Shown here: positions 10,124 to 54,908 of the stretch, piece by piece
Layout of the letters: every line of letters starts with the position of its first letter
How positions within the stretch are numbered: the stretch's first letter is position 1
NCBI GenBank assembly: GCA_964016885.1
Contig: OZ024745.1
Coordinates: 117,366,001 to 117,430,000 of the forward strand
DNA from: Eledone cirrhosa
Lineage: Eukaryota
Direction: 5' to 3'
DNA: 64,000 nucleotides
Made by a program: the position numbers and the translations under genes
The notes under the pieces: model-generated
Database searches by the model: none
What the model was told of the DNA's origin: nothing
Seen by the model: only the letters and a program-made list of their open reading frames with translations

Positions 10124-10305
10124 TATATATATATATATATATATAAAAGAAAATTTTCGGTCTACATGGCTGAATACAATAAATGTAATCTGAGTTTTTT
10201 TAATATTAATAATAACATTCGATTCTTTTGCAATTTGCAAACAAGCCTCAATTTTATAGCCATGTCAGTAGAATGAACCCTTCATTCTTGCTCTTGCGTT
10301 GGCAT

Positions 10306-10366
10306 GTGAACTACAGACACCAATGTTTCAGGGTGTCGCCCTTCATCAGTACAGCTCACTGTTCAC
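10306..10366 (-). ncRNA. Type I hammerhead ribozyme
   Basis: gagctgta-CTGATGA-aggg cgaca ccct-GAAA-ca ttgg tg-TC^-tgtagttc: intact core, stems I-III pair. Confidence 0.85.
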
Positions 10367-10754
10367 CTGCCAAACTGTCAGAGCTAGTGAAAATATATTC
10401 TATTTTCAAAAATACACAGTGACTGATCGGCCTGATTTGCATATTATCAGACTGGCTGATCAGTCAGATCTGCATATTAGCAGATCCACTGATCAGCCAG
10501 ATTTGCATATCAGCAGACTGGCCAATCAGTTCCCTGTATACGAGCGATAAATGGCCGGCTTTGCCAAATTCAAATAAAAGAGAAAACTTTCGCTCTATAT
10601 GGCTGAATACAATAAATGTAATCTGAGTTTTTCGAATATTAATAATAACATTCGATTCGTTAGCAATTATGCAAACAAGCCTCAATTTTATAGCCATGTC
10701 AGTAGAATGAACCCTTCATTCTTGCTCTTGTGTTGGCATGTGACAGTTTGGTAG

Positions 10755-10820
10755 GTGAACAGTCAGCTGTACTGATGAAGGGTGATACCCAGAAACATTA
10801 GTGTCTGCAGTTCTGTTCAC
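10755..10820 (+). ncRNA. Type I hammerhead ribozyme (inverted copy, sense to host intron)
   Basis: gtgaacag-tc-agctgta-CTGATGA-aggg tgata ccca-GAAA-ca ttag tg-TC^-tgcagtt-ctgttcac; 15-bp stem I with 2-nt bulge; A.A mismatch at base of stem II. Confidence 0.85.
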
Positions 10821-10957
10821 ATGGCAACACAAGAGCAAGAATGAAGGCTTCATTCTACTGACATGGCTATAAAATTGAGGCTTGTTTGCATAATTGCAAA
10901 CAAATCGAATGTTATTATTAAAATTCGAAAAACTCAAATTACATTTATATATATATA

Positions 10958-12248
10958 CAGGGTCCGGATGATATTTGTTCGCAAGATTACTGTCTAGGAA
11001 AAAATAACACAGTAGTTTTATTTATTAAGGTATATTTATCAAACTTGGGTCAGTTTGTCTTCATGACTTGTTCTTTCGATCTCACTCGATAAACCCTGCC
11101 ATTGGCTTTGATGACGGCCTCAAGGTGGCGTCGGAACCGGCTACAGGCCTTCGTCATGTCCCCCGACTTAGGCCCCTAAAGGCACTTGTGATCCTGGCCT
11201 TCAGATCGTCTTTCATATTGCAGCTAGATTTGTTGGTGTCTCGTTCCACTGTGCCCCACACAAAGAAGTCGAGGGGGTTGCAGTCAGCGAGCTGGGAGGC
11301 CAGATGTCAAGTGAAGTGTGGTCGACAAAGTTCTCTGACAGCCAGGCTTGGGTCTTTCGGCTGGTATGGCAGGGCGCTGAGTTTTTGCTGCCACATGTAC
11401 GGCCTACCTGCAACTACCTGGTCGATCCAGGGCTTTACTACCTCGCTCAGAACGTGGATGTAGCCATCGGTGTTCAGCTTGAGGCCCTCAGGGAAGAAGT
11501 GAGGTGGCATGACATCACCTTGACTGCTGACGACACCTAAGATCAATGTTGTCGCTGGAAACTTTGTCTGCATGACTCTGGGCACGTCTTTGGATGAGAC
11601 AGCGAGCCACCTGTTGTTCTGGGAGTTGATCTTCTGGTCTTGGCAGAAGTTTTTCTCGTCAGAGAAAAACCACAGCATGTCTGGCTCCAGTGGGTGTTTC
11701 AACTTGTTGATCAGCTTCTTTGCGTGCTTCAGTCGCTTTTCTTGTATCGCCTTTGACAGAAATTGTCCTTTCCTCATCTTGTATGAAACGTAGCGAATGT
11801 CTTCATGTACCTCCAGCCTAATGAGCTTTTCATCCACGCCTTTCTCTCTTGCAATGGCACACATCGACTTGTTAGGTTCATTGTTGATGATATCTTGAAC
11901 TTCAGCGACGAAGGCGTCAGATCGTCGATCATGTGTTTTCCTCTTTGATGTTGCTTCGTGTCGAATCCTGAATCTTCCAATTCCTTTCTGACCTTTTCCA
12001 CCATTCTCCTGCTGACGCTGAGAAAGTCTGAAATTTCCTTATTTGTCCTCCCGGCGCGGATTCCAAGAAGAACCCCGGGTCTCTTCCACAAATTTGGAGG
12101 TTCAAAATTATTCATAATCAATTATTCTGAAAATAAATAATGGAAATATAGTCACTGTTTTTATGAAGACAAGAGTGACAACGGAAGTAAAAACAATTTG
12201 CATAAAATTAGCAGTTGAAAATTGCGAAAAAATATTGTCCACACCCTG
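10958..12248 (-). mobile_element. Full-length but frameshifted Tc1/mariner-superfamily transposon, DD37D (maT) type
   Basis: Imperfect ~27-bp TIRs CAGGGT..GGA..ATATTT.TTCGCAA, TA flanks; WFFSDEKNF, WQQ[D]SAPCH, WPPSS[P]DCNPLD with 37 residues between D2 and D3 after frameshift repair. Confidence 0.9.
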
Positions 12249-14113
12249 TATATGTGCGTAAAAATTAATTGAAAAGGTTTGAAGCAATGATTGTATGTGA
12301 ATATTCGTAAAATTGGAGTATTCTCACAATGAGGGGTAGCTGTAAATGGCTGGATACTATATGTTTAGTAAAAAGTTTTTTGAGTTAAGATATAACCTCA
12401 AATCAAATGGAGAGTAGAAGAGAGAGGAAGAATGAGAATCTAAAGTATGATATGATGATGATTAGTAAAGTTGTAGTTATTCTCTTTGGTTTATGTAGGA
12501 TTCTATATAGAATTGTAGTATTATATTTTTCTATCTAATTTTGTTACATGTACTGTATAATAATGTGGTGGGATGACTTCTTGTAAATGATTCGTCAACC
12601 AATGAGCAAGTGTTGTACTTCTGTGCCTGATGTTTGAGTCGTGAAGGTCACAGCTTTTATGTTTACATAGAAATTAATATATTATATTAGTCATCTGAAG
12701 GGTCTTTGGAATAATGTTACTTGATTGAGTGCATAGATCAGAGAATTGCTCCCAGTAGAGCTGCTACTTTGAATTGAGAGATCACAGCTCCAGTAACAGG
12801 CATGTGGTTAGAATGTCTAAGGAAAGAATCACTGGACAGACCAGCTGGCATGAGACCCAGGAGTAGACCCCAAGTATGATGTTTGGATAACATCTATGAG
12901 CTTGGCTGGAGATCCAGCCAGATCAGTTGGAGACAGTTGCTCATAACAGGACCTGCTTGAAAGAGTGTTTGAGGACTCTGCCTCCACGACCCTCTCAGGA
13001 ATAAATGGGTGAAGCAAATCTGAAGTGTGTTGTGTGGTGCTGGTTGGTGGTTTTGTGTATTTTTTGTTTGTTTGTTTTGTAATATAACTGAGTTTGGGAT
13101 TAGGGGCAATACATGTGTTTTCTTTCATGAGTTTTTATGTGACATATTTATCCTTCTACTACTTGGGTGTATAAAATGTGTGGTTTGTGTATTTTTATTG
13201 GGTATTCTGTTATATGAGTGGGCGTAAATTTGTTGTATTGTTCTATGAAAAACCTTCTCTTCAATACACATGCCTCTTTCCTTTCTGTTTCACTATCTCT
13301 CCCACTCTTATTTTCAGTTTAACTCTCAATATTTATGTTTTATTTATATCTTTCCTTCACCTTATATTTATTTCTATTTAAAATCACATTTCTTTAATTT
13401 ATCTTTAACTTACTGTTGCATTGTTATTGTTTCTTACTGAAGAATTTCAGCTTACTGTATTCGGAGTTCAAATCTTTGTGTTGCCTACTTGAGTGGTGAA
13501 TTTAATCCATCACACAACACTGCCAATATAACCCTTGGCTGTCATAGAAGCAACTATCCTAGAATTATTAAGAAGAATGGTATTTTTCTCAAATACTCCT
13601 CTTTAAAAATAAATAATGAAAATCGTTTCAGGTTTAAACTGTTTTGAAAATAAAAATTCTTCAACAAAGTATTTTTCACTAGGACTGCAGTTTTTTAATC
13701 CATAAAGTCCTGCACCACATGAAACCACATTAGCAAGTCATTCTTGAAAGGACAGAACAGCACTATGAATACATCATATTAAAAATTATAGCCTTAAAAA
13801 TTATAGCCTGTTCAGTAGTAAAGATACTATAAACATTTTAATTAACAAACCCATTTTTAGACATTTTTATTATTATTGTTATTATTAAACTATTTTATTG
13901 GATTCAATGTATGGAGAACTTATATTTAGTATTTTGGGGACTTTTTTGAGTTTTATAATAATAGTTGTAACAATGCATATCATACTGAAATCATTAGTTT
14001 TTTCCTATTTTATCTGAAATACTCTCACTAATTGTTCTCCTATTGATAGTTAGTGTAATATAATTAATTCTATCTAAATATATTTTATAATATAATTTAT
14101 ATTTTTTTCTTAG

Positions 14114-14199
14114 TAAGAAATTACAATTATCATCATACAACTTCAAAAGATCTCCCTGAATACTCTTCCGGAGGAAAATACAATCCATCAGAATTGGAG
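14114..14199 (+). CDS. Host gene exon C (LRNYNYHHTTSKDLPEYSSGGKYNPSELE)
   Basis: ttttttcttag| acceptor, gag|gtaaag donor; phase 1->0, open frame. Confidence 0.85.
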
Positions 14200-14508
14200 G
14201 TAAAGATCTGATTTAAATTTTATTTAACTTAGGGTTTTCATCTTCATGCAAAAGGCATTGGATGTTGAAGATCTGCAGCAGCTTGAGAGAAATCTGTTGG
14301 GTACATGAGCACAGCTGGACTGAGAGGGTGACTGCATTGTAAAGAAGATGCATCTCAGGGGATTGGACTTGTGCAAATATATAATGAGTGCAAGATGAAC
14401 ATATCTGTGTGCTGCAAATAGTGGATAACACTGTGATATATTATTCTATTACATGTTCCAGCTGACAGGCTGAGGCCATTCTGGGGCACTGCCATTAGAA
14501 AAATTACC

Positions 14509-14601
14509 TGCCCTGAGTGAGGCTTGAACCTCTACATATCTTTCTACTTGTGGTTAACAAAAGTATAAATAGGGTGCCCTAATCGATTGTGCCAGCAGGG
14601 C
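14509..14601 (-). pseudogene. Intron-containing tRNA-Ile(TAT)-like pseudogene
   Basis: GCCCTGC-TGGCACAATCGATTAGGGC...TTTATA-[insert]...GGTTCAAGCCTCAC-TCAGGGC-A followed by TTTTT; D-loop GG mutated, anticodon stem imperfect. Confidence 0.6.
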
Positions 14602-15059
14602 AGTTATTGATAAAAATATAAAAGTTGGCATAGGTAATAGGGTTTCATGCAAATTCTCTTTAAACAATTCTTAAAGAAGCTATTAAATTGTATTGTATTT
14701 TAATTAATTCATAGTACACCATTCTTTGTCCTGAGGTCAAACATTTTGAGGATAAAGAAACTTTGAAATTGAGTATAAGTAAATAAAAAATGTTGAAACA
14801 ATTATGCTAATTTTGTGGCTAGGACGACATTTTGAAGAAATACATCTCTAATATTAACCAATCTTAATTTACAAATGACCATGTTATTAAAAATGAATTA
14901 CATTGACCAAATATATAAAGTATTAACTTCTATGTTAGAATTGTGAATATTATTTACCTGATAGTTGGTTCAGTTGTTGGCCACTAAACTACAGTTTGAC
15001 AGGTATCCTTTTATATAGAACAGAATTAATATTTATGTTCATTATTTGATAAATATTTA

Positions 15060-15247
15060 GGGCGATGGATTGGCAGTATCGGTAGAGGGTCTGACGCCAT
15101 GCTTTGCAGCAAAGAGTTATGGCCCTTTATGATCTGAGTTCAAATCCCACCAAGGTTAACTTTGCCTTTCATCCTTATGGGGTCGATAAAATAAAGTACC
15201 AGTAATACACTGGAATAATTGCTGGCCTTGTGCCAAAAATAGAAACA
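15060..15247 (+). mobile_element. tRNA-derived SINE family 1 (about 18 copies, e.g. 2608, 7718, 8661-, 23640-, 24067, 35152-, 36140-, 39600-, 40638-, 42103, 46717, 48953, 58933, 59135, 59244)
   Basis: ggattggcagtatcggtaga...gagttcaaatcc...gcctttcatccttacggggtcgataaaataaagtaccag...gtagaaacaatt; 19-bp TSD attatttgataaatattta. Confidence 0.9.
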
Positions 15248-15605
15248 ATTATTTGATAAATATTTACAATTACATTTTTAAAGAATAGTTCAGTGTGATA
15301 TTGTTTTTTCAGTTTCTGTAAAAATGTCCAGAAAATAATTATGTAAATATATGAAATGTTCTCTATTAAAAAAACCCTGAAACAAAATTGGACTAAACAA
15401 CAATTATAACCTTTTTCTTATCAAAAATATTATTTTCCAAAATTTCAAGTAATTTGTATTTTTCTATTGCACCACTTTCAGATTAGGCATTAAAATAAGT
15501 TTGTCTTTATTACTTGTCATCTTTCTTTTCATCTTTCTTCCTCCTCTTCCCTTTCATATTTCCTCTTCTCTTCTTCCTTATTGTGATAATCCTTTCTTTA
15601 TTAGA

Positions 15606-15781
15606 CACACACACATACATACACACTCACACATACATACATACACATACACACATACATACATACATACATACATACATACATACATACATACATACAT
15701 ACATACATACATGCATGCATGCATGCATGCATGCATGCATGCATGCATGCATGCATGCATACATACATGCATGCATGCATC
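15606..15781. repeat. Compound (CATA)n/(CATG)n microsatellite
   Basis: Visible directly. Confidence 0.95.
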
Positions 15782-15879
15782 CACACTTTCTCTCTCACAC
15801 ACTCACACAAATAGACATACATATAAACAAAATGATTATGAACAAACATGTTGGGAGAAAGACAAAAATATAATATAAC

Positions 15880-17960: not shown

Positions 17961-18269
17961 TTTACTCTTCGTTTAATGTACTTTTCTCAACATTTTCAAA
18001 ATATATTTTTTGGTGGGTTTGTTGCTATTACTTTTTTCACTCCTCAAGATGAAGCGATATTACATTTGTGTATCTTAAAGAAAATGTTATTTTTTATGAA
18101 AGATTCAGTAAGATTCTCCTTGAATAACAATATATTTGACTTAAATTGTTAGCTTCTTTTTATTTTGATTAATGTTGATAGACGTTGCAGAAATGGTTGA
18201 CCTATTCTTTAATGTGTTTTAGCATTAGCCTAAATTAATTAGCCTATATTAATCCCTCTAAGGCCATTT

Positions 18270-26799: not shown

Positions 26800-26857
26800 G
26801 TAAGATATTTGTAGAGAATTCTTTAAAAAAAAATTTGCATTAATTTCATTTATTTTT

Positions 26858-27693
<836 letters not shown>

Positions 27694-28246: not shown

Positions 28247-28883
28247 GGGTCAGTGATGTTATGGGGACGTCATGTAATGTAAAGTAAGAAGTAGCAGGAG
28301 TGGCATATGCCCTCTTTCACTATCGTTCAGTTTGGAAGAAGCACGTGTTTTTGCTCCGTGTGCTGGGGTCATATGTTTATACGTTCTGGCCAGAGGGTTT
28401 TGGCAGGCAGAGCATTCACTGACACGGATATATCCCATTCTGGACAAGATCAACCAGTGAGACATCCATGAAGTATGTGAGCTATGCCATCCCACCTTCC
28501 TCCCTGTACAAAGGATTTCATGAGTTCCATTCCTACACAAAGATGGTGCACTACAAACATCAAATAACTTTGGGTAGGTTCTTCACCCCTCAAACAGAAG
28601 TAGATGATAAAGAGTCAGAATATAGTACCCCTAATCCTTCCAGTAACTTCCATTGCACTACCTCCCCTGACACAGCAGTCAATATCTTTTGTGGTGAAAC
28701 TGTATCTTATGATATTATGATAATTATTTACTCCCTAATGTATTTTTCTTTAAATGTTTTTAAGTATCATATATGTACTGTACTATGTGTGCTTAGAGTT
28801 ATTGTCATGCAGAAATGTGGTTGTATTACTTATCTTAAATTTTTCTTTGAAATAAAAAGAAAGAAATTCTATGAATGGGAAAT

Positions 28884-30470
28884 AGTGGACAGTATTGACA
28901 ATGAACTGTATTGCCAGATGACACTATTGACAATAGACAGTATTGCCAGTTGACAGTATTGCCAGTGGACAGTATTGCCAGTTGACATTATTGCCAGTTG
29001 ACATTATTGCCAGTTGACAGTATAGACAGTGGACAGTATTGCCAGTTGACAGTATTGACAGCAGACAATATTGCCAGTGGACAGTAATGCTGGTGGACAG
29101 TATTGCCAGTTGACATTATTGCCAGTTGACAGTATAGACAGTGGACAGTATTGGAATGGAACAGTGTTGACAGTATTGTAAGTTGAGAGTATTGCCAGTT
29201 GACAATGGAGAGTATTGCCAGTTGACAGTATTGACAATGGACTGTATTGCAAGTTGACAGTGGACAGTATTGCAAATTGAGAGTATTGTAAGTTGACAGT
29301 ATTGCCAGTTGACAGCATTGCCAGTGGACTGTATTGGCAGTGGACAGCATTGCCAGTTGACAGTATTGGCAGTGGAAAGTATTGCCAGTTGACTGTATTG
29401 ACTGTGGACAGTATTGGCAGTTGACAGTATTACCAGTTGACAGTGTTGACAGTATTGCTAGTTGACAGTATTGGAAGTGAACAGTATTGACAGTGGACAG
29501 TATTACCAGTTGACAGTGTTGACAGTATTGCTAGTTGACAGTATTGGCAGTGGACAGTATTGCCAGTGGAAAGTATTGCCAGTTGACAGTGGACAGTAGT
29601 GCTAGTTGACGGTATTCACAGTGGACAGTATTGTTAATGGACAGTATTGGCAGTTGACAGTATTGTCAATGGATAGTATTTGTCAGTTGACAGTATTGAC
29701 AGTGGACAGTATTGCCAGGGGACAGTTTTGTTAGTTGACAGTATTAGCAGTGGACAGTATTGCCAGTTGACAGTATTGCTAGCAGACAGTATTGCCAGTT
29801 GACAGTATTTCCAGTTAACAGTATTGGCAACGGATAGTATTGCCAGTTGACAGTATTGCAAGTTGGCAGTATTGCCAGTTGACACTATTGCTAATGGACA
29901 GTATTGTCAGTTGACAGTAATGCCAGTTGACAGTATTGCAAGTGGGCAGTAATGCCAGTTGACAGTATTGCCAGTTGACAGTATTGCCAGTTGACAGTAT
30001 TACCAGTTGACTGTATTGCCAGTGGACAGTATTGCCCGTTGACAGTGGACAGCATTGCCAGTTGACAGTATTGACAGTGGACAGTATTGCCAGTTGAAGT
30101 ATTGTCAATTGACAGTATTGCCAGTTGACCGTATTGCCAGTTGACAGTATTGCCAGTTGACAGTGGCCATTAGTGACAGTAGACAGTATTGCCAGTTGAC
30201 AGTATTGCCAGTCTACAGTATTGCCAGTTGACAGTATTGCCAGTTTTCAGTATTGCCAGTGACAGTATTGGCAATGGACAGTATTGCCAGTGGACAGTAT
30301 TGCCAGTTGACAGTATTTCAGTGAACAGTATTGCCAGTTGACAATATTGCCAGTGGACAGTATTGCCAGTTGACAATATTGCCAGTTGACAATATTGCCA
30401 GTGGACAGTATTGCCAGCTGACAGTATTGCCAGCTGACAGTATTGCCAGCTGACAGTATTGACAATGGAC
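28884..30470. repeat. Minisatellite of 16-bp unit GACAGTATTGCCAGTT (~100 units, with variants)
   Basis: Visible directly; source of the spurious LAILSTGNTVNWQYCQ ORFs. Confidence 0.95.
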
Positions 30471-31464: not shown

Positions 31465-33170
31465 CATTAGGGTATAATGTGGGGCTGTAATACAGGAAAG
31501 TTTTGTGCAATTTATGTTTACAAGCCGAAATTGCCTCAGATTTTTTGTTTAAGATGTGGTCTTTGGCGTAGAGTATTTCCAGGGCCTCAGCGGTGCAGAG
31601 GTCACATGGTCTTTTATTTCCGTTATACGATCTAGCCTAAGCTAGGATCTCCCAGTGTAACTTATATTGGGTGTAGTTGTCTTTTAGACTCCAGATATAA
31701 GCTGAAAGTGACATCATATTCCTTCTTAAAGGGTTAAGAAAAGAATGGGTATGCATGTAAAGACGCTGCTTGAATCTATTGGCGGTTAACCCTATGTAGG
31801 CCCTACAGGACGTGGGTGTTTCAACCTTACATTTGTAGACAATGTTACTAGAGAGGCATTTCCTGGATAGGGGGCAGTCAACCCGATTCCTACAATTACA
31901 GTTAGTACTAGCTACAGGGTTACACGTGTTCCTACGGCTAGGTAGTTCAGCTAAATTTGAAGCTGTGATGTTTTGTGCAAAGTTAGGAGTCGTAGAGTAA
32001 GAGATTTTAATGGTATTTCTATTAAAAATGTTACTATATTTATGTGCTGGGGGGAAATGCTTCATAATAAGGGAGAGAAAGATCTCAGCTAATGGTGTGG
32101 CCACCTCCATATTATATGGTGGGTTATACCATATAATGCGTCGGGATCTATTTTTCCTAGGTCTATTCTCGTACTCTGTATAAGCTACCTTATCGACAAA
32201 TCCACTCCAAGCAAGAGCTTCATTGTAATATGTGGAATGGTCGTTGAAAATATGCTCGTTTGTGGATAGACAGGAAAGCCTCAAAGAAACGTTTCTTACC
32301 AGGTTCTTGGTTATGTTGGTAGGATGGTTAGAATGCTTACTTATGTAATTAAGTGTATCATTCGGCTTTCTATACGGGTTGCAAGCCATTCGGCAAATTG
32401 AGGGTAACATCAAGGTAATTATCGACCGAGAGGTTGGCCTCAACCTGTATGGAGAGGTTGAAGCCTTTAAAGAAGGCTGTGAGTTCTTTTCTGAACCTGT
32501 CGCAAGCACGTGGGCTGCACTTTGTCATGGTCAAAAGACCATCATCACGGTACAAACCACTGCCCACGCTGGGGAATTATTCCTTGATAGAGAAATGAAG
32601 GAAAAAGCCGATAAGATCAGTAACCTCTGCAGAATCGCTGGCGCCCATACTCACGTCGAATAGGGTACTTTTTTAAATCCAAATAGAGTCGTCGAAATTA
32701 ATCACCGACTTCCGGGCATTGAGGATGACATCAACTTCGAAATCCTTAACCACTGTGAGTGGTTTAGCGAAATTGATAGCTCTAAGAAGAAGTGGTAAAG
32801 TGATAGAGGAGTAGTAATTATTGATGTTGAATTGGTTAAAACAGCAATGTTCCTTGTTGCATATGCCGTTGAACCAATCAATCACCGCGAAAGAATTGTT
32901 CCACAGTACAAGAGGGGCCAAACTTCTAATTTCAGGTATAATTCTATCTAAAATCCTTTTACTAAGTCTACCTAAATCGGACTTCATAGGGTTAATAAAC
33001 CAAATAGAGGGGTTGTTCAGGAAATTGGATTTGTGATCCTTCAGGGTAAAGTGGGGAGAAATAGGGTCCAGAGGTTCAGTCCGGTCCAGGATGTTGAGAT
33101 CAGAGGTCATTTTAAACCCAGCATCGTTGATTTCATTAATGACGCTGCGATTAGTTTTACGGTAATCCTT
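31465..33170 (-). mobile_element. 5'-truncated Penelope-like retroelement (RT + GIY-YIG endonuclease), frameshifted
   Basis: TLKDHKSNF..NP..INPMKSDLG, MGASDSAEVTDL, GLYRDDGL, YISKHSNHP, WYNPPY, CNCR...CPL..KCL..NIVYKC...YIGLT..FKQR. Confidence 0.92.
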
Positions 33171-33589
33171 AGATATATATATAGTTATGTAATAAACAGC
33201 ATAAGATAATTATTTCATTTACCAATGGGTTCTTGGAGACAGATACTTATGTTTGTCTTCATTCATCAGAAAAAATATTTATTATGGAATAGTGATATGG
33301 ATTTGAAAACAGAGTTTAGGATAAATGAAAGTGAGACTGAAATAAAATAACGGGCATAAGTTGAGGGGAAAAAATATATAAATATCCAAATACATAAACA
33401 TACATATACACAAACTCACGCATATATGTAATAGTATGTAAACATATATATATTCACACATAGTATATGTGCGTCTGCATGGAAATACAAATACACACAT
33501 ATACGTGCGATCTTTCGCTCACATATGTGCACGCACAGTCACGCAATCACACACGTACTCAATATTAACGTATAAATATATATACACAC

Positions 33590-38442: not shown

Positions 38443-41100
38443 GTATAAATGCAAGTTTACGATTCTGTGTGTCCACCTAAAACTAGCAAACTACCGGACC
38501 AAACTCCTCAAAATTACATGTACATATTCACTATACATTCGGACAGGTAACGGTTGAAAAAGTTTTACTTTGCAAAGCAAGGAATTCATTTAAATTCAAT
38601 TTATCTTATTTTCTAATGAATATCAAAAGAGATCCATTTTGTTTTTTTATGTTCTCCAGTCTGTAGATAAGAGAGGCAGGGATGGGAGAGAGAAAGAGAT
38701 AGAGAGTAAGGGATGAGAGAGAGAGAGAGATAGTGAGTGGATGGGAGAGAGAGTAAGGCGATGTGAGAGAGAAATAAAGAGAGTAAGGGATGAGAGAGAG
38801 AGTGGGAGTAAGGGGATGTGAAAGAGAAAGAAAGAGAGTAAGGGGATGAGAGAGAAAGACGATGAAAGAGAGAGAGGGAAAGTAACCAGCGTTCTTAACT
38901 TTCATTTATTTATTATTTTTACACACTTTTTAACTCTTCCGCTTCCTTAACGTTATTTATCTTTTCTTTATTTTTTGTTCTCTCTTCCGTAGAGAGAGGG
39001 GGATGTGAGAGAGAAAAAGAGAGAGAGAGAGTAATGGGATGGGAGAGAGAGAGGGAAAGCAGCTAGCGTTCATTAACTTTAATTTATTTATTATTTTTAC
39101 ACACTTCTTAACTCTCCCAATGTTATATTTTATTTATTTTTTGTTTGCTATATGGTAGAGGATGAGAGAGAAAGAAAGAGAGGAGATGAGAAAGAGAAAG
39201 AGAGTGAGGCGGATGGGGAGAGAAAGACAATAAGAAAAGAGAAAAGATGGGAGAGAGAAAAAAAGTAAAGAGGCAGGAGAGAGAAAGGGTGGTTGGTGGG
39301 ATTATTTACCGAACGAACGTGTGTCCGCATTTATATATATATTTACACACACATATGTGTGTTAGCAGACGATATATCATACCATCAAAGCTTATTTTAT
39401 ACATATGTCTAAAGAAATCACAGATGCTTTTATAGAAGTTGTATATATGTATGTATTTAATAGACAAAAAAAAAAAAATACATGTCTAAAATTAATTACA
39501 CCTAATATGCATTCATATAAAGAGATCATTTAAAACAACTTTACTGAGTGAACAATACATTCTATAGTTGTTTCTATTTCGGAAAGAGTGTGGTGTATAA
39601 TAATTGTTTCTACTTTTGGCACAAGGCCAGCAATTATTCCAGTGCATTACTGGTACTTTATTTTATCGTGTGGTGTGTAATAATATCACTTGAAATGCCT
39701 AGAAAACGTTCAAGATCATTATATGGAAGGTCATCTTCAGAGGCTAAGAGAAAGAAAACACACCGATCTGAAGAAAGTGAAGAAGTTCGGCATGCCCGTC
39801 TAGCTGCTAACAGAGCCCAAACAGCTTTAGCATGAGCACACCATTTGGATGAAAGGGAACAAAGGACTGCTGCTACACAAGAACAACAAATTAAGGAACA
39901 GCAGCAAATCAGACGAAATGCTAATCAAGCACATCGTTCTACTACCCGAGCAGGAAAACAAGCCACAAGTAAAATGAACTGGCTGATGGGTGCTTTTTCT
40001 TATGACCCCAAAAGGACTACAGCAGTAATCCACGAATCAACATTGGGAAAAAGAACAAATGCTGCCAGTATTGTGGTGCCAAGAAGTGGGCAGCAGAAAC
40101 ACCATGTCTATGCTGCTCAAAAGGCAAAGTGAGCCTTAAAACAATCCAAGAACCTCCTGAATTTCTGAAGAATCTGCTCCTTCAGCATACACCAGAAGCA
40201 CGACACTTCAATAAATACATCATAAAATATAATTCTGCCTTTCAAATGACATCTTTTGGGGCTGACAGGAATGTGACTGACTTTAGATTCTGTACAACTT
40301 ATAAAATTCAGGGATAGAGTTACCACTTAATGGGTGGCTCTCTGCCACTTTCACAGAAGCCTCATAAATTTGTGCAGGTTAACTTCATGGGTGGAAATGA
40401 AACACAGGCACAACAAAGATGTACCAATGTCCATGGTGGATTGCAGTTCTATATAGTCATAAAGTTACAAGAAATGCTTCACCAACATCACATGTACGTC
40501 AGTGTATTTAAATATGCACTGGAGCATATGAACAACACCAGGGATCGTAAAATCATCATTAGGGCAGACAAACGCCCAGCTTCAGAACATGAATGCAGAT
40601 TCAATGCACCTGTCACTGATGAAGTTGCATTCATAATTGTTTCTACTTTAGGCACAAGGTCAGCAATTACCCAGTGCATTACTGGTACTTTATTTTATCG
40701 ACCCCGTAAGGATGAAAGGCAAAGTCAACCTCAGCGGGATTTGAACTCAGATCATAAAGGGACGTAACTATGCTGGAAAGCATGGCGTCCGACCCTCTAC
40801 CGATACTGCCAATCCACCGCTTGCAATCATAATGGTTGATGAACAGCATGAACGACGTGACATTGTTTTGCAAAAACGAAGTGGACATTTGGAGCAAATT
40901 TGTAAAACTCATAGAGCCTATGATTCACTCCAATATCCACTCATCTTTTGGAATGGTCAAGATGGATATCATTTTCAGCTACGGCAGATCAGCCCTGGAT
41001 CGGGACAAGAAACTGGCCAATCAAACAGCTGCAAAGAATTCTATGCTTAACATTTCATGGTATGTGATCACTTCAACAAAGTTCTGCAATTCAAAGAATT
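38443..41100 (+). mobile_element. Helitron remnant with disrupted RepHel N-terminal region (39695-41100), interrupted by SINEs
   Basis: CQYCGAKKW..E..LCCSKGKV, KYNSAFQMTSFGA, HECRFNAPVTDEVA, HRAYDSLQYPLIFWNGQDGYH; SINE 40638-40820 has 13-bp TSD (40625-37/40821-33). Confidence 0.88.
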
Positions 41101-41278
41101 ATAGAGAGAGATCGCTAAATCGCCTGATGCGGTCCCTAGGCCATTGAAAATTTGAAATTTTTTTTGCTCAAAACACCCACAGGACCATAAGTATTACATG
41201 TGTAAAGTTTGTAAACAATCGGTTGGGTGGTTCTGGAGCTGACAGACAGAGAGACATTCTCTGTTTTAGATATATAGA
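41101..41278 (-). mobile_element. 5' end of a non-autonomous Helitron related to 9211-9400
   Basis: Reverse-complement similarity to 9211-9400; A|TC terminus. Confidence 0.7.
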
Positions 41279-41788: not shown

Positions 41789-42865
41789 TGCCCAAATAAT
41801 ATCGATATAAGAATTATATCGACATTAATAGATTAGTGATGGTCTCCCTCAGCACTAAGAAGAGACTGGTAGATTAGAAAATCAAGCAGTCCTCCCAAAG
41901 ATAAAATACACGCTGTCCCCAAGAGGGTAAGGGGAGGTCATCTTAAAATAAAACAATATACACGCTGGTCATTTAAATCTGTTAGGTATTAACCACGTGT
42001 ATAAGAACTCAATTGGATATTAAAAGAATAACTATATGTATACACATATATATTACTCTTTTTCCTTTTCTGCCTGAAGCCATGCTGGGGCACTGCCATT
42101 GAGTGGCTTGGCAGTATTGGTAGAGGGTCGGACGCCATGCTTTGACGCATAGAGTTACGGCCCTTGCCATTCTGAGTTCAAATCCTGCCGAGGTTAACTT
42201 TGCCTTTCATCCTTACGGGGGTCGATAAAATAAAGTACCAGTAATGCCCTGGGTAATTGCTGGCCTTGTGCCAAAAGTAGAAACAATTATATATATATAT
42301 AAGTATGGATATGTACACACATATATATATGTACACACATATATATACATATATATATATATATATTTCGTTTCTGAATTTGTTTAGCAAGATTCTTTAT
42401 CTGAAAACATGTGTGGAATAGCATCATCACAACTTACAATTAAGGACAAAATGAAAACACACACATAGAACAAACAACCAACCAGTAACATGTAAATAAA
42501 CAAATATAAACACACACAGACACCCGGATGTAACACATGCGCAAACTAAGCACACAACACACACAAAAACAAGATGGCAAAGGACAGAACAAAGGAGAGG
42601 CAGAAAAACAAAGAAAAGAATCCCCAGTCACTGAAGAGGTCACAGAATGTGTGGCGAAAGAACTTTGACAATATATGAACAATCGTCTGGTTGTGGAACC
42701 AACCAACCAACCGGAAATTTATAAATTTAATTTATAATAAATTGAAGTGAAAGCAATTGGTGCGTGTGATTCTTATTGGCAACATGACCCTCCCAAAGCA
42801 TAACAATATATATATATATATATACACACACATATATACATATACATATGTACGCATGGATTATA

Positions 42866-43245
42866 TCGAATATTAATAATAATATTCAATTCGTTTGTAA
42901 ACAAATGGTCCAATTAGCAGCTGTGCCGTGCTGACAACCAATCGTCACCTGTTTGTTCAACACTGGCTTTGAGGAACAATCAACGTCTCTGGGTCATTAC
43001 CCTTCTTTAGGACTGTATGCCTCTGCCAATCTGTTGAATGGTTGAAAATATATAGTATTTTCTTAAGTATATATCGACTGAGTAGCCTCATTTGCATACT
43101 GAGCGAGTTACAGCTGGCCTTGCCGAAAATTAAAAATAAAATTAGAATTTAATTTCTCACCCTAGCACAGCTGATACATAAATGTAAGTATGCATACGTA
43201 TATATGTACTGTGCTAGGGCGAGAAATAAAATTCTAATTTTATTT
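42866..43245 (-). mobile_element. Octamer/hammerhead element, decayed core, with short terminal inversion
   Basis: ctaaaga-agggtaatgaccca-gaga (decayed core); ATTTGCAT at 43090; about 43135-43170 inverted at 43208-43245. Confidence 0.7.
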
Positions 43246-44018
43246 ATATATATATATTATAAACCTCACCCTTGCACAATCTGTGGATTTGCTGGAAAAT
43301 CCCTATCATGCCCAATATAAACATCCAAACTGGATGAAATCGACGTGAGAGTCCATCATACTATAATATTTATTCTTATATTATTATTTTGTAGCACAGT
43401 TTCATTTCATTATAAAACAGCTTGCTTTCAGTTAGAAATCTTCTTGGAAAAGGTTAGGCTATCACAGATGTTATTTCTCCCTCTCTTTGGTTTCATGTCT
43501 GAGTTAGAAATAAATTTATACTATTTCGAAAGTTATGTGTCATTGATTATGTTACTATGATAACAGAATCACATATCTTTTTATATCTAAATTGAGAAGC
43601 AATTTGGAATGCTTAAAATGCAACATGCACATATTCACTTGCACATTTCACTCGCATCAAATGAATCATATTCCACCTACTTACTATTTACTGTAATTTG
43701 TATTCAATGCTACTTATTATGCATCTGACATTTTTCTGTTGTTAAAGTAGTGATTCAGTTTGAATATACACTTGAAGCAAGATACTCCTGAATCACAATC
43801 AGTGCACTAGCAATTATGATTGCTGTTAAAAGACCTTTTGTGTATTGAGCTATGAGACATTAAAACATAGACAGATTGCATTGTGTTCATTTCAGTGAAT
43901 GGTCATTTCTGGATCTTAACAAGATAATTACATGGAAGAAAATACTGTATATTATCTCATAACTTATCTGAGTGTTTCTTGAAATTTCTGTTATAGTTTA
44001 TATATTTCTATTTTCCAG

Positions 44019-47977: not shown

Positions 47978-48007
47978 CATGACAGAAAGCCGGAAACCTG
48001 CAAATAA
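47978..48007 (+). CDS. Putative last coding exon (HDRKPETCK*) followed by AT-rich 3' UTR
   Basis: Long pyrimidine tract then tctatag|; phase 0; TAA stop; AATAAA at ~48303 and ~48543. Confidence 0.5.
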   Translation, partial: HDRKPETCK

Positions 48008-49599
48008 AAAAGGCATTTTACAATATTAATTAAATTTTGCTATAAAATAATTCATGAAGAGATAGTGAAAGGAATGAATTCTCAGAAATTTAATACAGCT
48101 TCTCTTAGATGATTTATGAAAAGGAACATAACTGAAAAATCATGTGGTGTTAAAAAATTTGAAGAATAATTAATAATGAAGTCACTAATATTATGACTTG
48201 TGAAAAGAAAAACAAAGAAGATAAATCACTTGCAACTAAAGGAACTATTCTGTCTTCAACTGTGTAGATATACAGATATGTTGTTGATAAGATTGTAGTT
48301 GGAATAAATATAAGTTTTTAATTTCTTAATTCATAAAACACATTTCATATGTACCCAAAAGATATTTAGAGGAATTTAATAGATTAACTAACCTTTTCAT
48401 TAGTAAGCTGATATTTAGAACATTACTTAACAAAAATTGATAAAATTATGATGGGAGGATTTAATATAAGGATAAATATTTAAAAATTAGCAGCTTTATA
48501 TTAATCCTTGCAGTTTCCAGTGATTCAAAAGGGTTAAATAAAAATAAAAATAAAAATAAATAAAAATAATATTAAATAGAATATTTTTCTCAATATTTCT
48601 CAAAAATGTTGAGCTTATGTGAGAATTTGTTTAGACAATTCAGGTTTCTAAAATGTAATATAAAAAAATCATAGCTTTTTTATAATTTAATCTCTCTTTT
48701 CCTTTTGAAATATATTAAATTATATTAAACATAATAATAGTTTCATTTCATATATTATATATATTAAAAAGAAACATTTTCATTCATTCATTCATTCATA
48801 TTCCATATTTTAATACATTTAAATAATGTATTTGATTGTGAAATAGTTTTCTGTGACATTGGCATAGCTTCTGATATATAGATATATATCCTCATTTAGA
48901 GGGAAAGAATTTTATAAGCTAAATTTAATAGTAATATTAAATTGTAAAACAAGGTGATGGATTGGTAGTATTGGTAGAACATCAGACTCATGTTTTATGG
49001 CGATCTGAGTTCTAATCCTGCCAAGATTAGCTTTACCTTTCATCCTTATGGGGGGTCGATAAAATAAAGTACCAGTAATGCCCTGGAGTCAATTTAATCG
49101 ACTTTCCTCTCCCCAAAAATTGTTGTCCTTGTGCCTAAATCTGAAACCAATATTGAATTGTAGAATTAGGGAACAAAATCTAATCTATTTTGATATAAGT
49201 GTACATGTAAAATTTTTATTCCTCCATATGTGAAGTCATTATCATTGAAATAAAAAAGTCACATAAAAAATAACTCATTATTAGACTTGTGATTCAAAGG
49301 ATAAAGTGGTTTCCCATTACATTCTTCAGACCCATGAATTTTTTACTGCCACTACAGTCTTGTCTACTTAATTTGTAATTCACCAGCACTTAATGTCACA
49401 TAATCATGTGTCAGTATTTAACATATGACAGCAAAATATCAAATCTTGGTTCAATGTATTGATGAGAAATAACCCTGAAAATATAAGTTACAAATTAATT
49501 GGTGATATTTTTCAATCAATATGAAACATAACTTTTTTATGAAATTGAAACAGTGCAATAATCAGATATTTATACCTGATTTGAAAGAGAAGTGATGCC

Positions 49600-50095
49600 A
49601 ACTTTGTGTTGTGTAATCAGTAAGGAAATAACCCTGCAAGTAATTGAGATGTTGTCCAAGTCTTAAAAAAAAAATGAGACTTTGCAGATTTGAAATATAC
49701 ATATACATGTATATGCCATAATTTCTCTAGCCCCTGAACAATCTTCCTGACTTCAGAGATTGGTGTTGATATCACTGTGAGGTCATCAATAAAGGTTCTG
49801 ATTGGTGATTGCTTTAAATCTGACTTGTTGAGTGGTCCCTGGTACATTTTCTCTACTGATTTGATCAGTATATTCATAGCCTGAGTGAAGACAGTCACTG
49901 AGATAATGTACCCAGTGATTATCCCTACTTCCAGCTGGTAGTAGGAGACCCTCAAATTGAACTTACTGATGAGATCATTCACCTTGTGGTACATAATGTC
50001 TCTTCGACTCAACCTCGACCAGTTTGTGAGGTATTCAGTTGTATGTGATGGACAGATCCACGCAGAGCTCTACCAGGTTGCATTTGCCTTTGAGT
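49600..50095 (-). mobile_element. Decayed non-LTR RT fragment (Hero/RLE-group-like)
   Basis: LEVGIITGYIISVTVFTQAMN...GPLNKS..QSPIRTFIDDLTV. Confidence 0.65.
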
Positions 50096-50347
50096 GCTGA
50101 AAGCTCTAAATTGCTGCACAGGGTTACTTCATTTCAATACCTGGGTATCATCAGTTACCGTTGATTGTATATATATATATATAATTGGGATTTAGCTTCA
50201 TGCATAGCTGTATGCAGATATGTATTGGAATTTTGTATTTCTAAAGAAATACTGTATGTTTATAGATAAACATTTAGAAAGTCGTAGCTATGCAAAACAC
50301 CGGAGCTATCACCCTCCGGTGGTGTCCAGCAGAAGTAAGGGAGGACA

Positions 50348-50391
50348 ACTGTCAATGCATTTCGAACTTAACTGGTCCTCATCAGGATGAC
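50348..50391 (-). ncRNA. Minimal type I hammerhead ribozyme (stem I decayed)
   Basis: gtcatc-CTGATGA-ggac cagttaa gttc-GAAA-tgca-TT^-gacagt. Confidence 0.7.
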
Positions 50392-50672
50392 CCCCCTACT
50401 CTTGCAACTGCTGGACTTGAAAACAGGTGAGAATATATGGTTTTCTCGTCTGTGTAAATAAGGTGGTTAATCTCATTTGCATATGAAGTTGCATAAGTTG
50501 GCTTAATTAATAATAGAATAGAATTAGGATTTAGCTTCATGCATAGCTGTATACAAGTTGAGCCAACTTATGCAGCTTCATATGCAAATGAGATTAATCA
50601 CCTCATTTACACAGACGAGAAAACCATATATTCTCGCCTGTTTTCAATCCAGCAGTTGCAAGAGTGGGAGGG

Positions 50673-50716
50673 ATCGTCCTGATGAGAACCAGTTAAATCT
50701 GAAATGCATCGACGAT
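50673..50716 (+). ncRNA. Minimal type I hammerhead ribozyme (stem II weakened)
   Basis: atcgtc-CTGATGA-gaaccagttaaatct-GAAA-tgca-TC^-gacgat; perfect 6-bp stem I; palindromic ATGCAT stem III. Confidence 0.8.
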
Positions 50717-51419
50717 TATCCTCCTCGCTTCTGCTGGACACCACCAGAGGGCGATAGTTGCGGTGTTTTGCATAGCTACGACTTTCTAAATGTTTATCTA
50801 TAAACATTTAGAAAGTCGTTTGGAAATACGAAATTCCAATACATACCTATATATGATAGTAAAAAAGAAAAAACAGTAGAAAATGCTAATGGGATTTTCT
50901 CATAGAATAACAGCAAAACATTTATTTACAAAAAAAGGAATTTATCGTACTGGTTTCAGCCACGTGGGTGTCTTCATGCCACAGAAGAGGATAATAAAAT
51001 TTATAATCGAGTTTAGTTGTATATTAATAAGAATATGGTATAAAATAACATGCTTTACATATGTGTATATATAGAAGAGTTCACATTTTTTTTATCGCTT
51101 TCTTTCTTTGGTGGTGCTGACTATAACTGCAGCAGTGGTAGTGAAAGTAGCAGAGGACTAGCTTGTTCTATGTTCTTGGTGTTGACCTTAACTGTAGTTG
51201 TAGTGGTTGTAGCAGTAGAGGGGGAGAAGGGGAAGAAAAAGAGGAGGGGTAGAAGAAGTAGAGGAGGAAGAAGAGGAAGGGAGGGGATGAGGTGTGGTAG
51301 TAATAAAAGAGTTATGGCAAAGAAGGAAGGGAAAGATGAAGAAGGGGTGGGCGAAGCAGAAGGGGACGACGGGAAGGTTTAGTAGTAATAGTATCACTAT
51401 TATTAGTAGTAAATGGAGC

Positions 51420-52470
51420 TGTCCGTGGGATTGACTTAAATGATTGAGTGACCTTAGAGTTGATTGAGGAATTGTTTCTTAATATATCTATCTTGGTATT
51501 TTTGTCGGTAATGCTGGCACTCTTAGTTTGTCCGGTGGTGTTAAAAATTGACCTGCAGTGTGATTGTTTCTAAAGATATCGATCTCCCTTAATTTGTCCA
51601 TTGGTGTTAATGTTAGGTGCTCGTTGCAATTTCGTCTGCAGCGGAAGCATTTAAAAGGGGTTCGTATTTTGTGATAAATTGTGATTTTTTTTTAATGCTG
51701 TGAATGTAGAAAGCGTTGTCTTTAGATTTGTTGAGGGAAAAAATTCTGAAGTTGGGTTGTTCATTAGAGGCACAGGTGGCAATGTCTTCACTCAATGCTA
51801 TTTTTCTGTATTCTTGTATTTTAATTTGGGATCTATGAACGGTCATATGTTGATGAAGACTGTTAGTAATCTCTCCTATGTAGTGCTCTCGACAGCCTGA
51901 GCAAGTTAACACATCAATCGGGTTTTCTGATGCGCATGTGAAATTGTATTTCACTGTAAAGTGTTGCCCTTGTTTGAAGCAGAACTCCAATCCCTCTATT
52001 AGGTTGACGCATATACCACAATTGGGTCTTCTGCATTTTTTTTACTGTTGGTTTCGTTGTTGTGGAAAGACTTATTGAATTTAAAGCACTTCTAAAGAGA
52101 CTTAACACAAACATTCAATTCATGGTGGAATACAGCCACCAGCAACTCCCTTTCTATGACATCCTTATTAAGAAAGTTAACAACAAAATAGAGACAGACA
52201 TATACTTTAAGCCCACACACTCCAAGCAATATCTTCCATTCAACTTATGCCATCCAAGACACACTAAAATGAATATCCCTTACAACCTAGCCAAAAGGAT
52301 CTGTACAAGAGTTTCTGATAGTAACACCTGTTACATACGACTACAAGGACTAAAGGACACACACTCATTAACAGGAATTACCCACCATCCCTAATTAATA
52401 ATGTATTCCAATGTGCCGTAAAACTCAGAATCCAGGATCTTAGACAACCAAACTAAAGAATGAATCGAAA
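51420..52470. mobile_element. Penelope-like element with 5' inversion: GIY-YIG part on minus, RT thumb part on plus
   Basis: Minus: CRRPNCGIC...FTCASEN..VLTCSGCREHYIGE; plus: LNTNIQF..E....LPFYD...TDIYFKPTHSKQYLPFNLCHP. Confidence 0.88.
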
Positions 52471-52588
52471 CTGTATATATAATAACAACAAAGTGGAAGT
52501 GTTACATCAAAAATTTATTGATCAGACCTAGTTACAACTGTTTCACAAACAGTCAGCTCATGATCCAGGTTAATATTCAAAACCAGAT

Positions 52589-53700
52589 ACAAGTAGGAGT
52601 ACATCAGGGTTCGGTCCTCAGCCCGCTCTTGTTCATTATAGTCCTCCAAGCCATAACAGAGGAGTTTAAGACTGGCTGTCCATGGGAACTTCTCTATGCT
52701 GACGATCTGGCTCTTATAGCAGAATCAGTAGAGGAGCTAGAGAATAAATTCCAGCTATGGAAACAGCAGTTGGAAGCAAGAGGACTGAGAGTAAATCTAG
52801 CTAAGACAAAAGTGTTGATGAGTAGAAAAGAGGACAAAACCCTGATTCCGTCAGGGAAATGGCCATGTTCGATATGCAGAAAAGGAACTGGCATAAATTC
52901 TATAAAATGCACACAATGCAGGTCCTGGGTACACAAGAGATGTAGCGGGATAGCAGGCAAACTAACAGGTAGGGAGAAATATGTATGCAGTAGATGTACA
53001 GGGAAATTAGACAGTAGAAGTCGCACTGATAGACACATTTTTCAAATGCGAGAGGGCGCTATAGAAGTGGTGGATAGCTTCCGGTACCTAGGAGATCAGA
53101 TTAGCATGGGAGGAGGGTGTTCCGAGGCCATAGTATCTAGAATAAGGACGGGTTGGAAGAAGTTTAGGGAGCTGCTTCCTCTGTTGACGAAGAAGGGTTT
53201 CTCCCTGCATACGAAAGGCCGGTTGTATGATGCCTGTGTGAGGAGCGCGATGCTGCATGGTAGTGAGACATGGGCAGCAACCGCAGAGGATATGCGACGG
53301 CTGGAGAGAAATGAGGCAAGCATGCTCCGTTGGATGTGCAGTGTAAATGTGCGTGAACGACCCAGCATAAATGTGTTGAGAGAGAAACTGTGTCTGAGAG
53401 GGATAGAATGTAGTGTACGGGAGAGGAGACTGAGGTGGTATGGACATGTGATGCGCATGGAGGATGACCGATGGGTGAAGAAGTGCCAGGAAATGCCAGT
53501 TGAAGGAAGATGTGGTAGAGGTAGACCACGAAAAACATGGGCGGAGGTGGTGAGAACAGACCTCAGATCATTGAAGCTCACGGTGGAGATGACGAGGGAC
53601 CGTGACGAGTGGAGAGATGCTGTGCTGAATAAGACCCGTCCCACCCTTGCAAGCAGGGAAAAGCGGACGTAAAATGATGATGATGATGATGATGATGATT
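52589..53700 (+). mobile_element. Young 5'-truncated RTE LINE, open frame, PHD finger inside RT, (GAT)n tail
   Basis: GVHQGSVLSPLLF, LLYADDL, KTKVL, C4HC3 finger, FRYLG, RLRWYGHV, GRGRPRKTW; 6-bp TSD ccagat (52583-88/53701-06). Confidence 0.95.
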
Positions 53701-53785
53701 CCAGATCTGGATGATCCTCAGACCAGGACTGTCAGAACAAAATCCACATCAGATTTACTGAATCTTCTACTCATATATATATATA

Positions 53786-54394
53786 CTAGTAAACTACCCG
53801 TCCTTTGGACGGTTCAAGTAGCTTTCGATGTAGCTCATTAAACTAAACAAAGTAAATTTGAATACATAGAAGAAAAACGTACTTTATGTAAACATGAAAA
53901 CCTTAGGCACTATTCCAGCGAAATAATTTTAGATAAATTTAAGCATAATATTGTAAAAGTTATGACATCATTTAATGTATGAACATCAAGCTTGACACGA
54001 TAAATTATACAATGTCAAATCTATAACTTAACTTAGTAATCTGTTAGAAATTGCTGGTTGTGAAATATAAAAAAATGATATTGTTAATCTCTTTCTTTCA
54101 AGTACAAAGAGTAAATTAAAATCTGAATGAGCCGAATTACGAAAGATAACTCTTGTCTTACTTAATCACGAAAATTCACACAAATAACCAAAACTTTTTT
54201 AATGTCTCCAAAGGCCCCAATATCGATTTTTGAAAGCCTTTCTAGATCATGTACAGGTTTTGTGCAAGGAGAAGCTCTGTAAAAAATTTCAAAGAGATCG
54301 CATGAATGGTTTAGAATATATGAGCCCTCATTAAAAATTGTCCACACACATATACACATACATACAGAAAACTACAGATTTATATATATACAGA
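53786..54394 (-). mobile_element. Non-autonomous Helitron
   Basis: A|TC at 54394, hairpin ccgtcc-ttt-ggacgg at 53798-53812, CTAG|T at 53786. Confidence 0.8.
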
Positions 54395-54611
54395 TATATA
54401 TATATATATATATACACACACATATATATATATACATGCACTTACACACATACATATACATATATATATGTGTGTATGTATGTATATATATATCTATATC
54501 TATATATATATATATATAAGTATGTATACATACATACATATATGTATACAGACGTACAGTAGTATGTATATACATACATACATGCACACATATATATGTA
54601 CGTATGGGTTT

Positions 54612-54908
54612 ACCGAATATTTATTATAATGTTCAGTTTGTTTGTAAACAAACAGCCCGAATTAGGCCGTACAGTGTTCGGCAACCATTGTTGCGCTTTT
54701 TTTCAACACTGACAAAGGAACGATGAACTAGTTTCTAGCTTATTAGCTGTCATCAGCACCGTATACCTTCCTGTCAGTCGATTGAATGTTTGAAAGTATA
54801 TACTTTCTTTATGCATATTAATGGCTGAGCAGCCTAATTTGCATATCGTGTGAGTTAGTCGGCCAATTCTAATTTTCAATTTCTGCTTGACCAGCAACCG
54901 CTCTGTAT
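54612..54908 (-). mobile_element. Octamer/hammerhead element, single unit
   Basis: Collinear with 42866-43170; ATTTGCAT at 54837; TATA-like gtatatac; intact HHR core. Confidence 0.8.
54720..54762 (-). ncRNA. Minimal type I hammerhead ribozyme
   Basis: acggtg-CTGATGA-c agct aata agct a-GAAA-c ta g-TT^-catcgt; palindromic ACTAGT stem III. Confidence 0.8.

Follow-up and report, generated by a model that had tools for sequence, protein, structure and literature searches.

The stretch of DNA analyzed here (hereafter the window) comprises 64,000 nucleotides (nt) of the Eledone cirrhosa genome (assembly GCA_964016885.1, contig OZ024745.1, positions 117,366,001 to 117,430,000) and contains copies of small hammerhead ribozyme repeats at four loci, which represent four related families, A, B1, B4, and C, all of them dispersed and large. 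An earlier note on this DNA had described an octamer, a TATA-like box, and a hammerhead core following one another on the ribozyme strand; this order is present on the same strand at all four loci, and the octamer-to-core distances given there (86, 80, 90/90, and 81 nt) were reproduced on re-measurement. There are 15 exact octamers in the window, five of which stand 80-90 nt ahead of a same-strand hammerhead core: ATGCAAAT precedes the core by 86 nt in family A (10435 to 10349, minus strand), by 80 nt in B4 (43090 to 43010, minus), by 90 nt in both arms of C (50475 to 50385, minus, and 50589 to 50679, plus), and by 81 nt in B1 (54837 to 54756, minus), in each case with a TATA-like box in between. 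With both intervals counted along the ribozyme strand for families A-D, the octamer-to-core distance is not fixed, as had been proposed, but varies between 73 and 93 nt, and the TATA-to-core distance varies between 38 and 57 nt across families; the fixed interval is the one from octamer to TATA (42-45 nt). We regard this feature as real and, judging from sequence, as a likely promoter of the element.

The family A locus consists of a long arm (10141-10743, minus strand) of about 1.4 units, the family unit being 438 nt, whose T-run end abuts (TA)n. This arm carries the octamer in three 33-nt repeats (10435-10508, minus), of which those at 10508-10501 and 10442-10435 are exact and the middle one has one mismatch, followed by a TATA-like box within a hairpin (10391-10399, minus), a start predicted at about 10369 from the position of the host TATA at -30, and an intact type I hammerhead core (10316-10349, minus) with a predicted cut after 10316. 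The inverted short arm (10741-10948, plus strand) stops about 35 nt before the end point of the long arm and has no tail; its hammerhead (core 10772) is intact, but the arm is 5'-truncated and has no octamer or other promoter box. A further family A fragment, reported at 7325, is a 94.8% copy of 10442-10689 (7318-7565, minus) with tail, T-run, and octamer repeats (exact octamer at 7384-7377) but neither a TATA box nor a ribozyme. The B4 copy (42815-43248, minus) has its octamer at 43097-43090, TATA at 43054, and a broken core at 43010, and includes a short inverted arm reaching 43248. Family C is represented by a left arm (50187-50530, minus; octamer 50482-50475, TATA 50439, core 50385 with a helix I mismatch) and a right arm (50552-50848, plus; octamer 50582-50589, TATA 50625, core 50679 with a broken helix II). 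The B1 copy (54563-54857, minus; octamer 54844-54837, TATA 54802) has an intact core at 54756, with a predicted start at about 54772 and a predicted cut after 54726. Head to head with it lies a copy absent from the earlier list, the octamer-less sister element H2 (54863-55170, plus), with a TCAGT box at 54911, TATAAG at 54938, a variant-core hammerhead at 54989, and a distal-box-like motif at 55029-55041. The head-to-head junction of B1 and an H-type element (54857-54863) is seen again at another locus (L090), and a template switch between two retrozyme RNAs in one insertion is a possible origin. Full units measure 339-484 nt instead of the 290-430 bp first proposed, and the units are free of open reading frames, as claimed, apart from one 101-codon stop-to-stop frame that overlaps a window copy. 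The window copies are mostly decayed end products, as no two ribozymes stand in direct tandem; they could not themselves release monomers from tandem transcripts, as had been proposed for the units.

The ribozyme had been taken for a minimal hammerhead. Instead, helix I has 6-8 pairs and continues beyond internal loops, helix II has four pairs, often over a mismatch, and helix III consists of one pair plus a palindromic four-base insert in eight of nine consensuses, which is the canonical type I form; over the nine consensuses pairing in helices I and II is kept with changed bases, i.e. the helices covary. Three of the six window cores (10349, 10772, and 54756) pass a structural descriptor that was relaxed to allow a mismatch at the helix II base, because a stricter form missed families A and B; the earlier claim of a hammerhead core at each locus is upheld for these intact cores and not for those at 43010, 50679, and 50385. 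For B4, whose window core is broken, 11 of 20 sister loci have an intact one. An Rfam scan of the window gave no hammerhead match at E<=1. The H2 core (window 54989-54995) reads U3 and A8 in all three copies seen (the others being L343 and L346). U3-A8 is probably a tolerated swap of the C3-G8 pair, one not found in the literature searched. A canonical metazoan hammerhead of the form seen in these families is reported to work as a dimer, whereas the minimal hammerhead of Penelope-like elements (PLEs) is described with no or a reduced helix III, a short helix I, and a long helix II (PMC4209133), and an axolotl retrozyme shows a U-U mismatch at the helix II base (PMC7229834). Another ribozyme in this genome, a G-type PLE-end hammerhead not belonging to A-D, provides an observation of its own: at one locus (L218, G000:C10:48072600-48073300) a U6 retrocopy is fused to the first base after the predicted G-type cut, within a two-armed insertion. 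Such an exact joint occurs in 1 of 14 U6 retrocopies and, from its sequence, is likely a fossil of cleavage and RNA ligation in vivo. Two further loci (L221 and L228) may hold joints of this kind with another ribozyme variant, found in L153. Comparable chimeras are known for U6 and LINE-1 (PMC6789731).

The four families are abundant in the 3.0-Gb genome searched (1,796 contigs). Among 40 candidates scored of about 2,800-4,600 per family, the identity of the best copies to the window locus is 91-94% for A (10141-10948), 86-93% for C (50187-50848), 94-96% for B1 (54563-54857), and 86-89% for B4 (42815-43248). A pattern of octamer, 65-95 nt, core, and GAAA has 35,843 matches in the genome (18,439+17,404) compared with 24 (11+13) for the reversed-pattern control; these totals reflect copy number and are not independent evidence, and more weight is put on comparisons between lineages and with the host. 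The octamer enrichment upstream of hammerheads that the earlier note predicted was borne out in four 200-kb blocks (800 kb) picked regardless of content, to which the 800-kb counts below also refer. These blocks hold 61 hammerhead motifs, 37 of families A-D and 24 others, and the exact octamer lies 81-93 nt upstream in 34 of the 37 A-D hammerheads (12 of 15 when counted by insertion) and in none of the 24 of other families. Elements supply 44 of the 109 octamers in this sample, about 18 of them from one array. Near-identical arrays of about 30 units are formed by families D (466 nt) and B2 (484 nt), and dimers or arrays occur elsewhere in the genome for A (L009), B1 (L079), B2, D, and E; none were seen for B4 or C1, or in the window. 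The GC content of the units is 0.34-0.40, and five natural monomers fold as branched circles (z -4.8 to -10.7, 30 shuffles). A type I hammerhead in each unit, tandem arrays, lack of coding sequence, low GC, and a self-paired circle are the features of a non-LTR retrozyme, i.e. one without long terminal repeats. A search of sequencing runs for family D listed no RNA data set; the family (L119:1050-1620) is present in runs X4 and X5 (organisms B and C), in one to three contigs carrying a return joint at 466 bases, a periodicity that shows neither RNA nor circles. Hammerhead-like motifs as a whole are frequent in the genome, with 111,182 matches of the long-helix-II type (4,166 in the control) and 70,405 of the short type (1,555 in the control), the two patterns partly overlapping, and another short hammerhead family with a palindromic helix III has no upstream octamer (L293:1207).

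The ends of the copies resemble those of PLE insertions. Copies comprise 1.2-1.4 units or arrays, often plus an inverted 5'-truncated second arm, and border on (TA)n at either of two fixed end points, which are separated by 35-50 nt. These take 10 and 22 of 34 ends in A, 20 and 18 of 42 in B1, and 16 and 18 of 37 in C1, counts that lose weight as support because the loci were selected by queries ending near those sites. PLE insertions are characterized by a partial tandem, an inverted copy, a one-sided tail of 30-40 nt, and a microsatellite target (PMC8557442), and the units show these marks of a PLE passenger with a tail of 35-50 nt. Both the identity of the units as retrozymes and their PLE-type insertion are thus well supported at the level of sequence. 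In principle, the units could be solo or tandem ends of coding PLEs (pseudo-long terminal repeats, pLTRs), with the boxes serving as a PLE promoter. Such an origin would suit the PLE-type ends on the units, the promoters reported in PLE pLTRs (PMC6765202), and the reported finding in Xenopus that 24 of 57 retrozyme families match transposable elements, nearly all of them PLE ends (bioRxiv 10.64898/2026.07.22.740005). On the other hand, with three protein queries and mostly 1.5-kb flanks, PLE coding sequence was found at most 2.5 kb upstream on the same strand in 0 of 118 A-D and 0 of 13 E/H hammerhead contexts, compared with 2 of 11 G-type and 3 of 29 F-type ribozymes, and long pure arrays exist; these results also speak against the earlier note's own proviso that the units might prove to be mere solo ends of coding PLEs, and we consider such an origin highly improbable. 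Of the three PLEs that had been placed in the window, tblastn with three PLE queries gives two coding remnants, and Pfam found nothing in three PLE fragments of the window. Elsewhere in the genome, a young Neptune-like PLE (L151-L156) has an intact 784-amino acid frame with reverse transcriptase and GIY-YIG endonuclease and an upstream 455-codon frame, so that the required class of enzyme is available. This PLE, which is related to 51640-52450 of the window, was considered and rejected as a demonstrable parent of the units; (TA)n is the only sequence that it has in common with them, a canonical hammerhead is lacking, and no octamer occurs in its terminal repeat, a further argument against a PLE-end origin. 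The same terminal repeat holds repeated CCAAT-containing units.

The octamer is conserved at the level of sequence. TATGCAAAT is the sole 9-mer common to A, B1, B4, C1, and D, which are 42-76% identical, and is longer than the catalytic 7-mer common to the same five lineages; 59 of 278 ungapped columns are invariant, and a run of at least nine invariant columns arose in 8 of 200,000 shuffles. It is conceivable that the units contain no working promoter, being cut from read-through host transcripts, and that octamer and TATA were kept as RNA elements (hairpins or protein sites) or are inherited relics. In the predicted RNA fold both words fall within hairpins, read-through has been proposed for retrozymes in a review (PMC7761336), 5' ends do not cluster at the predicted start in the copies, and the window copies apparently sit in introns of a host gene, as suggested by isolated exon-like frames, in two of which Pfam found nothing. 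However, the octamer occupies one hairpin arm while the partner arm differs by family and often leaves a mismatch inside the octamer, and RNA pairing therefore does not explain why the octamer is invariant; nor would a relic last through 40-58% divergence. The triplication of the octamer at 33-nt spacing in family A and the agreement of its flanks and of the TATA position with host promoters, together with the agreement of sister families E and H with another class of host promoter (see below), likewise argue for a promoter, and we hold a promoterless element to be improbable.

The comparison with the host was based on three independent U6 promoter types, the single RNase MRP gene, and five U1 and four U2 promoter types; 14 U6 matches with unrelated flanks, several 5'-truncated and some with approximate start positions, were set aside as retrocopies. 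An extended box, TATGC(A/T)AAT(G/T)AG, is present in all four U6/MRP types, where its octamer lies at -76 to -78 and the TATA box at -30 (an octamer-to-TATA spacing of 46-48 nt), and is found in none of the nine U1/U2 promoter types and none of the 14 promoterless retrocopies. When scored with a matrix of the four host boxes, all seven octamer units tested reached p<=0.0004, and no U1/U2 promoter fell below p=0.05. In the 800 kb, the 12-mer plus TATA occurs 36 times, 35 of them ahead of a ribozyme core and the remaining one in a B copy that is damaged, and both flanks (T before, NAG after) are found at 3 of 65 octamers outside elements. POU sites of high affinity typically have octamer flanks of this kind, and ATGCTAAT is among the variants that POU factors tolerate. 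As sequences, the octamer and TATA boxes of the elements match the U6 and RNase MRP promoters of the host. The earlier proposal of an octamer-type promoter in each unit gains support from this match, whereas its generality does not extend to sister families E and H, which lack the octamer. Ten of the 13 host promoters have a common distal box at -258 to -289. The U1/U2 promoters (L203-L217, L232-L254) show a TATA-like box at about -30, AATT at about -91, and TCAGT at about -57; in human, a TATA box is described only for the Pol III (RNA polymerase III) class of small nuclear RNA (snRNA) promoters (PMC3499247). DNA neighboring the snRNA genes yielded no further small-RNA genes, so that the promoter set lacks U4, U5, U6atac, 7SK, and RNase P. 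In some U6 array copies (L197, L198, L200-L202) a SINE-like insertion lies between octamer box and TATA and has moved the box to -270.

The two sister families, E (310 nt) and H (313 nt), whose identity to A-D is 38-48%, resemble the second class of host promoter and show the U1/U2 layout, with AATT at about -91, (T/C)CAGT at about -57, and TATA at -30; this three-box layout was found at 8 of 9,199 TATA anchors, four of them E/H copies. Family E, moreover, carries the host distal box exactly, on the strand right after the cut site and at -258 from the predicted start of the next unit, a placement matched in 0 of 5,000 random stretches. The window H2 copy (p=0.004) and C1 (p=0.013) also score for the distal box; no such score is reached by A, B, D, or the H unit chosen for the test. 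We tentatively propose, with somewhat less than even confidence, that one retrozyme lineage took up host small-RNA promoters, the A-D branch with the U6/MRP octamer module and the E/H branch with the U1/U2 module. In E, the distal box would double as the 3' strand of helix I, with the 310-nt unit setting the -258 distance; tandem arrangement and ribozyme would let the promoter travel via RNA, and a shift of 4-5 nt in the octamer module may have switched transcription from Pol III to RNA polymerase II (Pol II), enabling the element to be read through its own T-runs.

Taken together, our analyses favor a model, to which we assign about an even chance, in which very abundant type I hammerhead repeat families use U6/MRP-like boxes to drive their own transcription, preferentially by Pol II, and in which the self-cut RNA is re-inserted by Penelope-like enzymes. 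The unit itself reads, in order, promoter boxes, hammerhead, structured body, and T-run. A POU-type factor and the TATA-binding protein would probably start transcription about 30 nt past the TATA box, just ahead of the ribozyme; given such a start, the polymerase would somewhat more likely be Pol II, reading through the T-run and the promoter of the next unit. As suggested by the structure and by relatives, paired hammerheads in arrays would then very likely excise unit-length RNA containing the promoter of the following unit, which may subsequently circularize, and an upstream promoter would in this way survive retrotransposition. Finally, the insertion marks make it highly probable that the reverse transcriptase and endonuclease of a PLE insert copies of this RNA at (TA)n, in the form of one arm or of two opposed arms. 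The choice of Pol II is suggested by copies that begin upstream of the T-run and continue through it into the promoter, for which a terminated Pol III RNA could not have been the template. The shorter octamer-to-TATA spacing of the elements (by 4-5 nt relative to U6/MRP) is also in agreement, as it goes in the same direction as in human, where Pol II genes are reported to have the proximal sequence element nearer to the start than Pol III genes do (PMC3499247). In addition, A and B have TCAG at the U1/U2 position, although only A scores.

Alternatively, the same elements with the same borrowed promoter may be used by Pol III as a U6-type gene, giving an RNA of 230-360 nt that ends at the T-run, with rare read-through or host Pol II transcripts providing the promoter-containing templates. 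Apart from the restriction of the octamer box to the four Pol III promoter types among the host genes sampled, this would account for the T-runs; in five of six octamer units (A, B1, B2, B4, and D), the 220 nt that follow the predicted start are free of T4 runs, and a T5-T7 run immediately precedes the promoter of the next unit, and the long ends of A, B4, and D coincide with that run. However, the depletion of T-runs is not significant in any unit (p 0.27-0.42), C1 has T4 at +113 and no T5, the ends of B1 and B2 lie 3-8 nt past the T-run and D ends at its second T5, and C1 and E share the same two-end geometry without a T-run. Together with the copies that extend across the T-run and the shortened spacing, these observations make transcription by Pol III rather unlikely.

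Several observations weigh against the model of self-promoted, Pol II-transcribed retrozymes. The lineages are related, and their shared octamer reflects one origin kept through long divergence. Of 67 unrelated octamers, 11 are followed by a TATA-like word by chance, and every element TATA lies within a hairpin of the RNA. The number of host promoters compared is small (4 Pol III and 9 Pol II types), and half of the U6 array copies (5 of 10) carry an insertion that displaces the octamer box and were left out of the promoter set. Within this sample it is the Pol III genes that have the octamer, an argument against Pol II, and the spacing of 42-45 nt in the elements differs from that of the host. 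The TCAGT box is significant only in A (p=0.009) and in one H copy (p=0.04), and not in B, C, D, or E. In the 800 kb, copies have scattered 5' ends that do not concentrate at either the predicted start or the predicted cut site. No partner PLE was found for any of the four families, one young PLE family having been examined. Lastly, according to a review, metazoan retrozymes do not seem to contain promoters (PMC7761336).

Other repeats lie in the same window. Further remnants of ribozyme families comprise an I-type end beside a PLE fragment (33170-33290), a decayed F-type end (42631-42660), an H-like palindrome of two 3' ends (59570-59904), and a G-type inverted pair (60521-60595). The regions 26850-27215, 40006-41147, and 28883-30470 contain a 1.6-kb minisatellite and coding fragments, which we take, from their motifs, to be Helitron-like.

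Animal retrozymes are abundantly transcribed; one review describes them as promoterless, and only the newt and Schistosoma cases suggest otherwise. Here, candidate boxes, spacing, and start site are specified from the host's own genes, and the comparison in turn outlines elements of the animal's U6, MRP, U1, and U2 promoters, an outline of use for tools that express small RNAs; no paper describing these promoter elements was found, in a search that reached few subscription papers. Given their large share of the genome's octamers, the elements may spread POU sites widely, and the system could be used to test what makes a promoter of this lineage recruit Pol II rather than Pol III. Literature searches, whose scope stopped short of the supplements of a 2026 preprint and of Repbase, found no account of these cephalopod families or of two branches matching two classes of host promoter.

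The design of a promoter plus a hammerhead in tandem is itself already known from newt, Schistosoma, and the plant retrozyme NbRZ1. The newt promoter is said to contain an octamer as well. The families described here share with metazoan non-LTR retrozymes (Cervera and de la Pena 2020, PMC7229834; Li, Clavereau and Pollet 2026, bioRxiv 10.64898/2026.07.22.740005) non-coding low-GC tandem units of a few hundred bases, a type I hammerhead with a short palindromic helix III, a range from monomers to long arrays, and a proposed mobilization by PLEs, but the accessible portions of these papers describe neither promoter elements nor cephalopods. Newt satellite 2 is likewise a hammerhead repeat (330 bp), for which Pol II transcription from an snRNA-type promoter within the unit has been reported (PMC2220036, PMC6765202, PMC2114352); unlike in the newt system as described there, two sister clades here match two host promoter classes, and a TATA box is combined with a proximal octamer. 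In the SINE-like Sm-alpha repeats of Schistosoma, a promoter also precedes the hammerhead in tandem and comes to lie at the 3' end of the cut monomer (PMC6765202, PMC2220036); there, however, the promoter is described as an internal Pol III promoter, whereas the boxes found here match those of promoters of the upstream kind (U6/MRP and U1/U2). Type 3 Pol III and Pol II snRNA promoters similarly combine an octamer, TATA at about -30, and a distal enhancer-like box (PMC3499247), but in this host the octamer is proximal (-77) and confined to the Pol III genes sampled, and U1/U2 also have TATA at -30. SINEU is another snRNA-linked retroposon, which reportedly keeps the snRNA body without the promoter, the reverse of the present case (PMC4494074). 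Finally, in the retrozyme NbRZ1 a Pol II promoter has been mapped upstream of the ribozyme, the arrangement proposed here, but NbRZ1 differs in being an LTR element with a type III hammerhead (PMC12029980).

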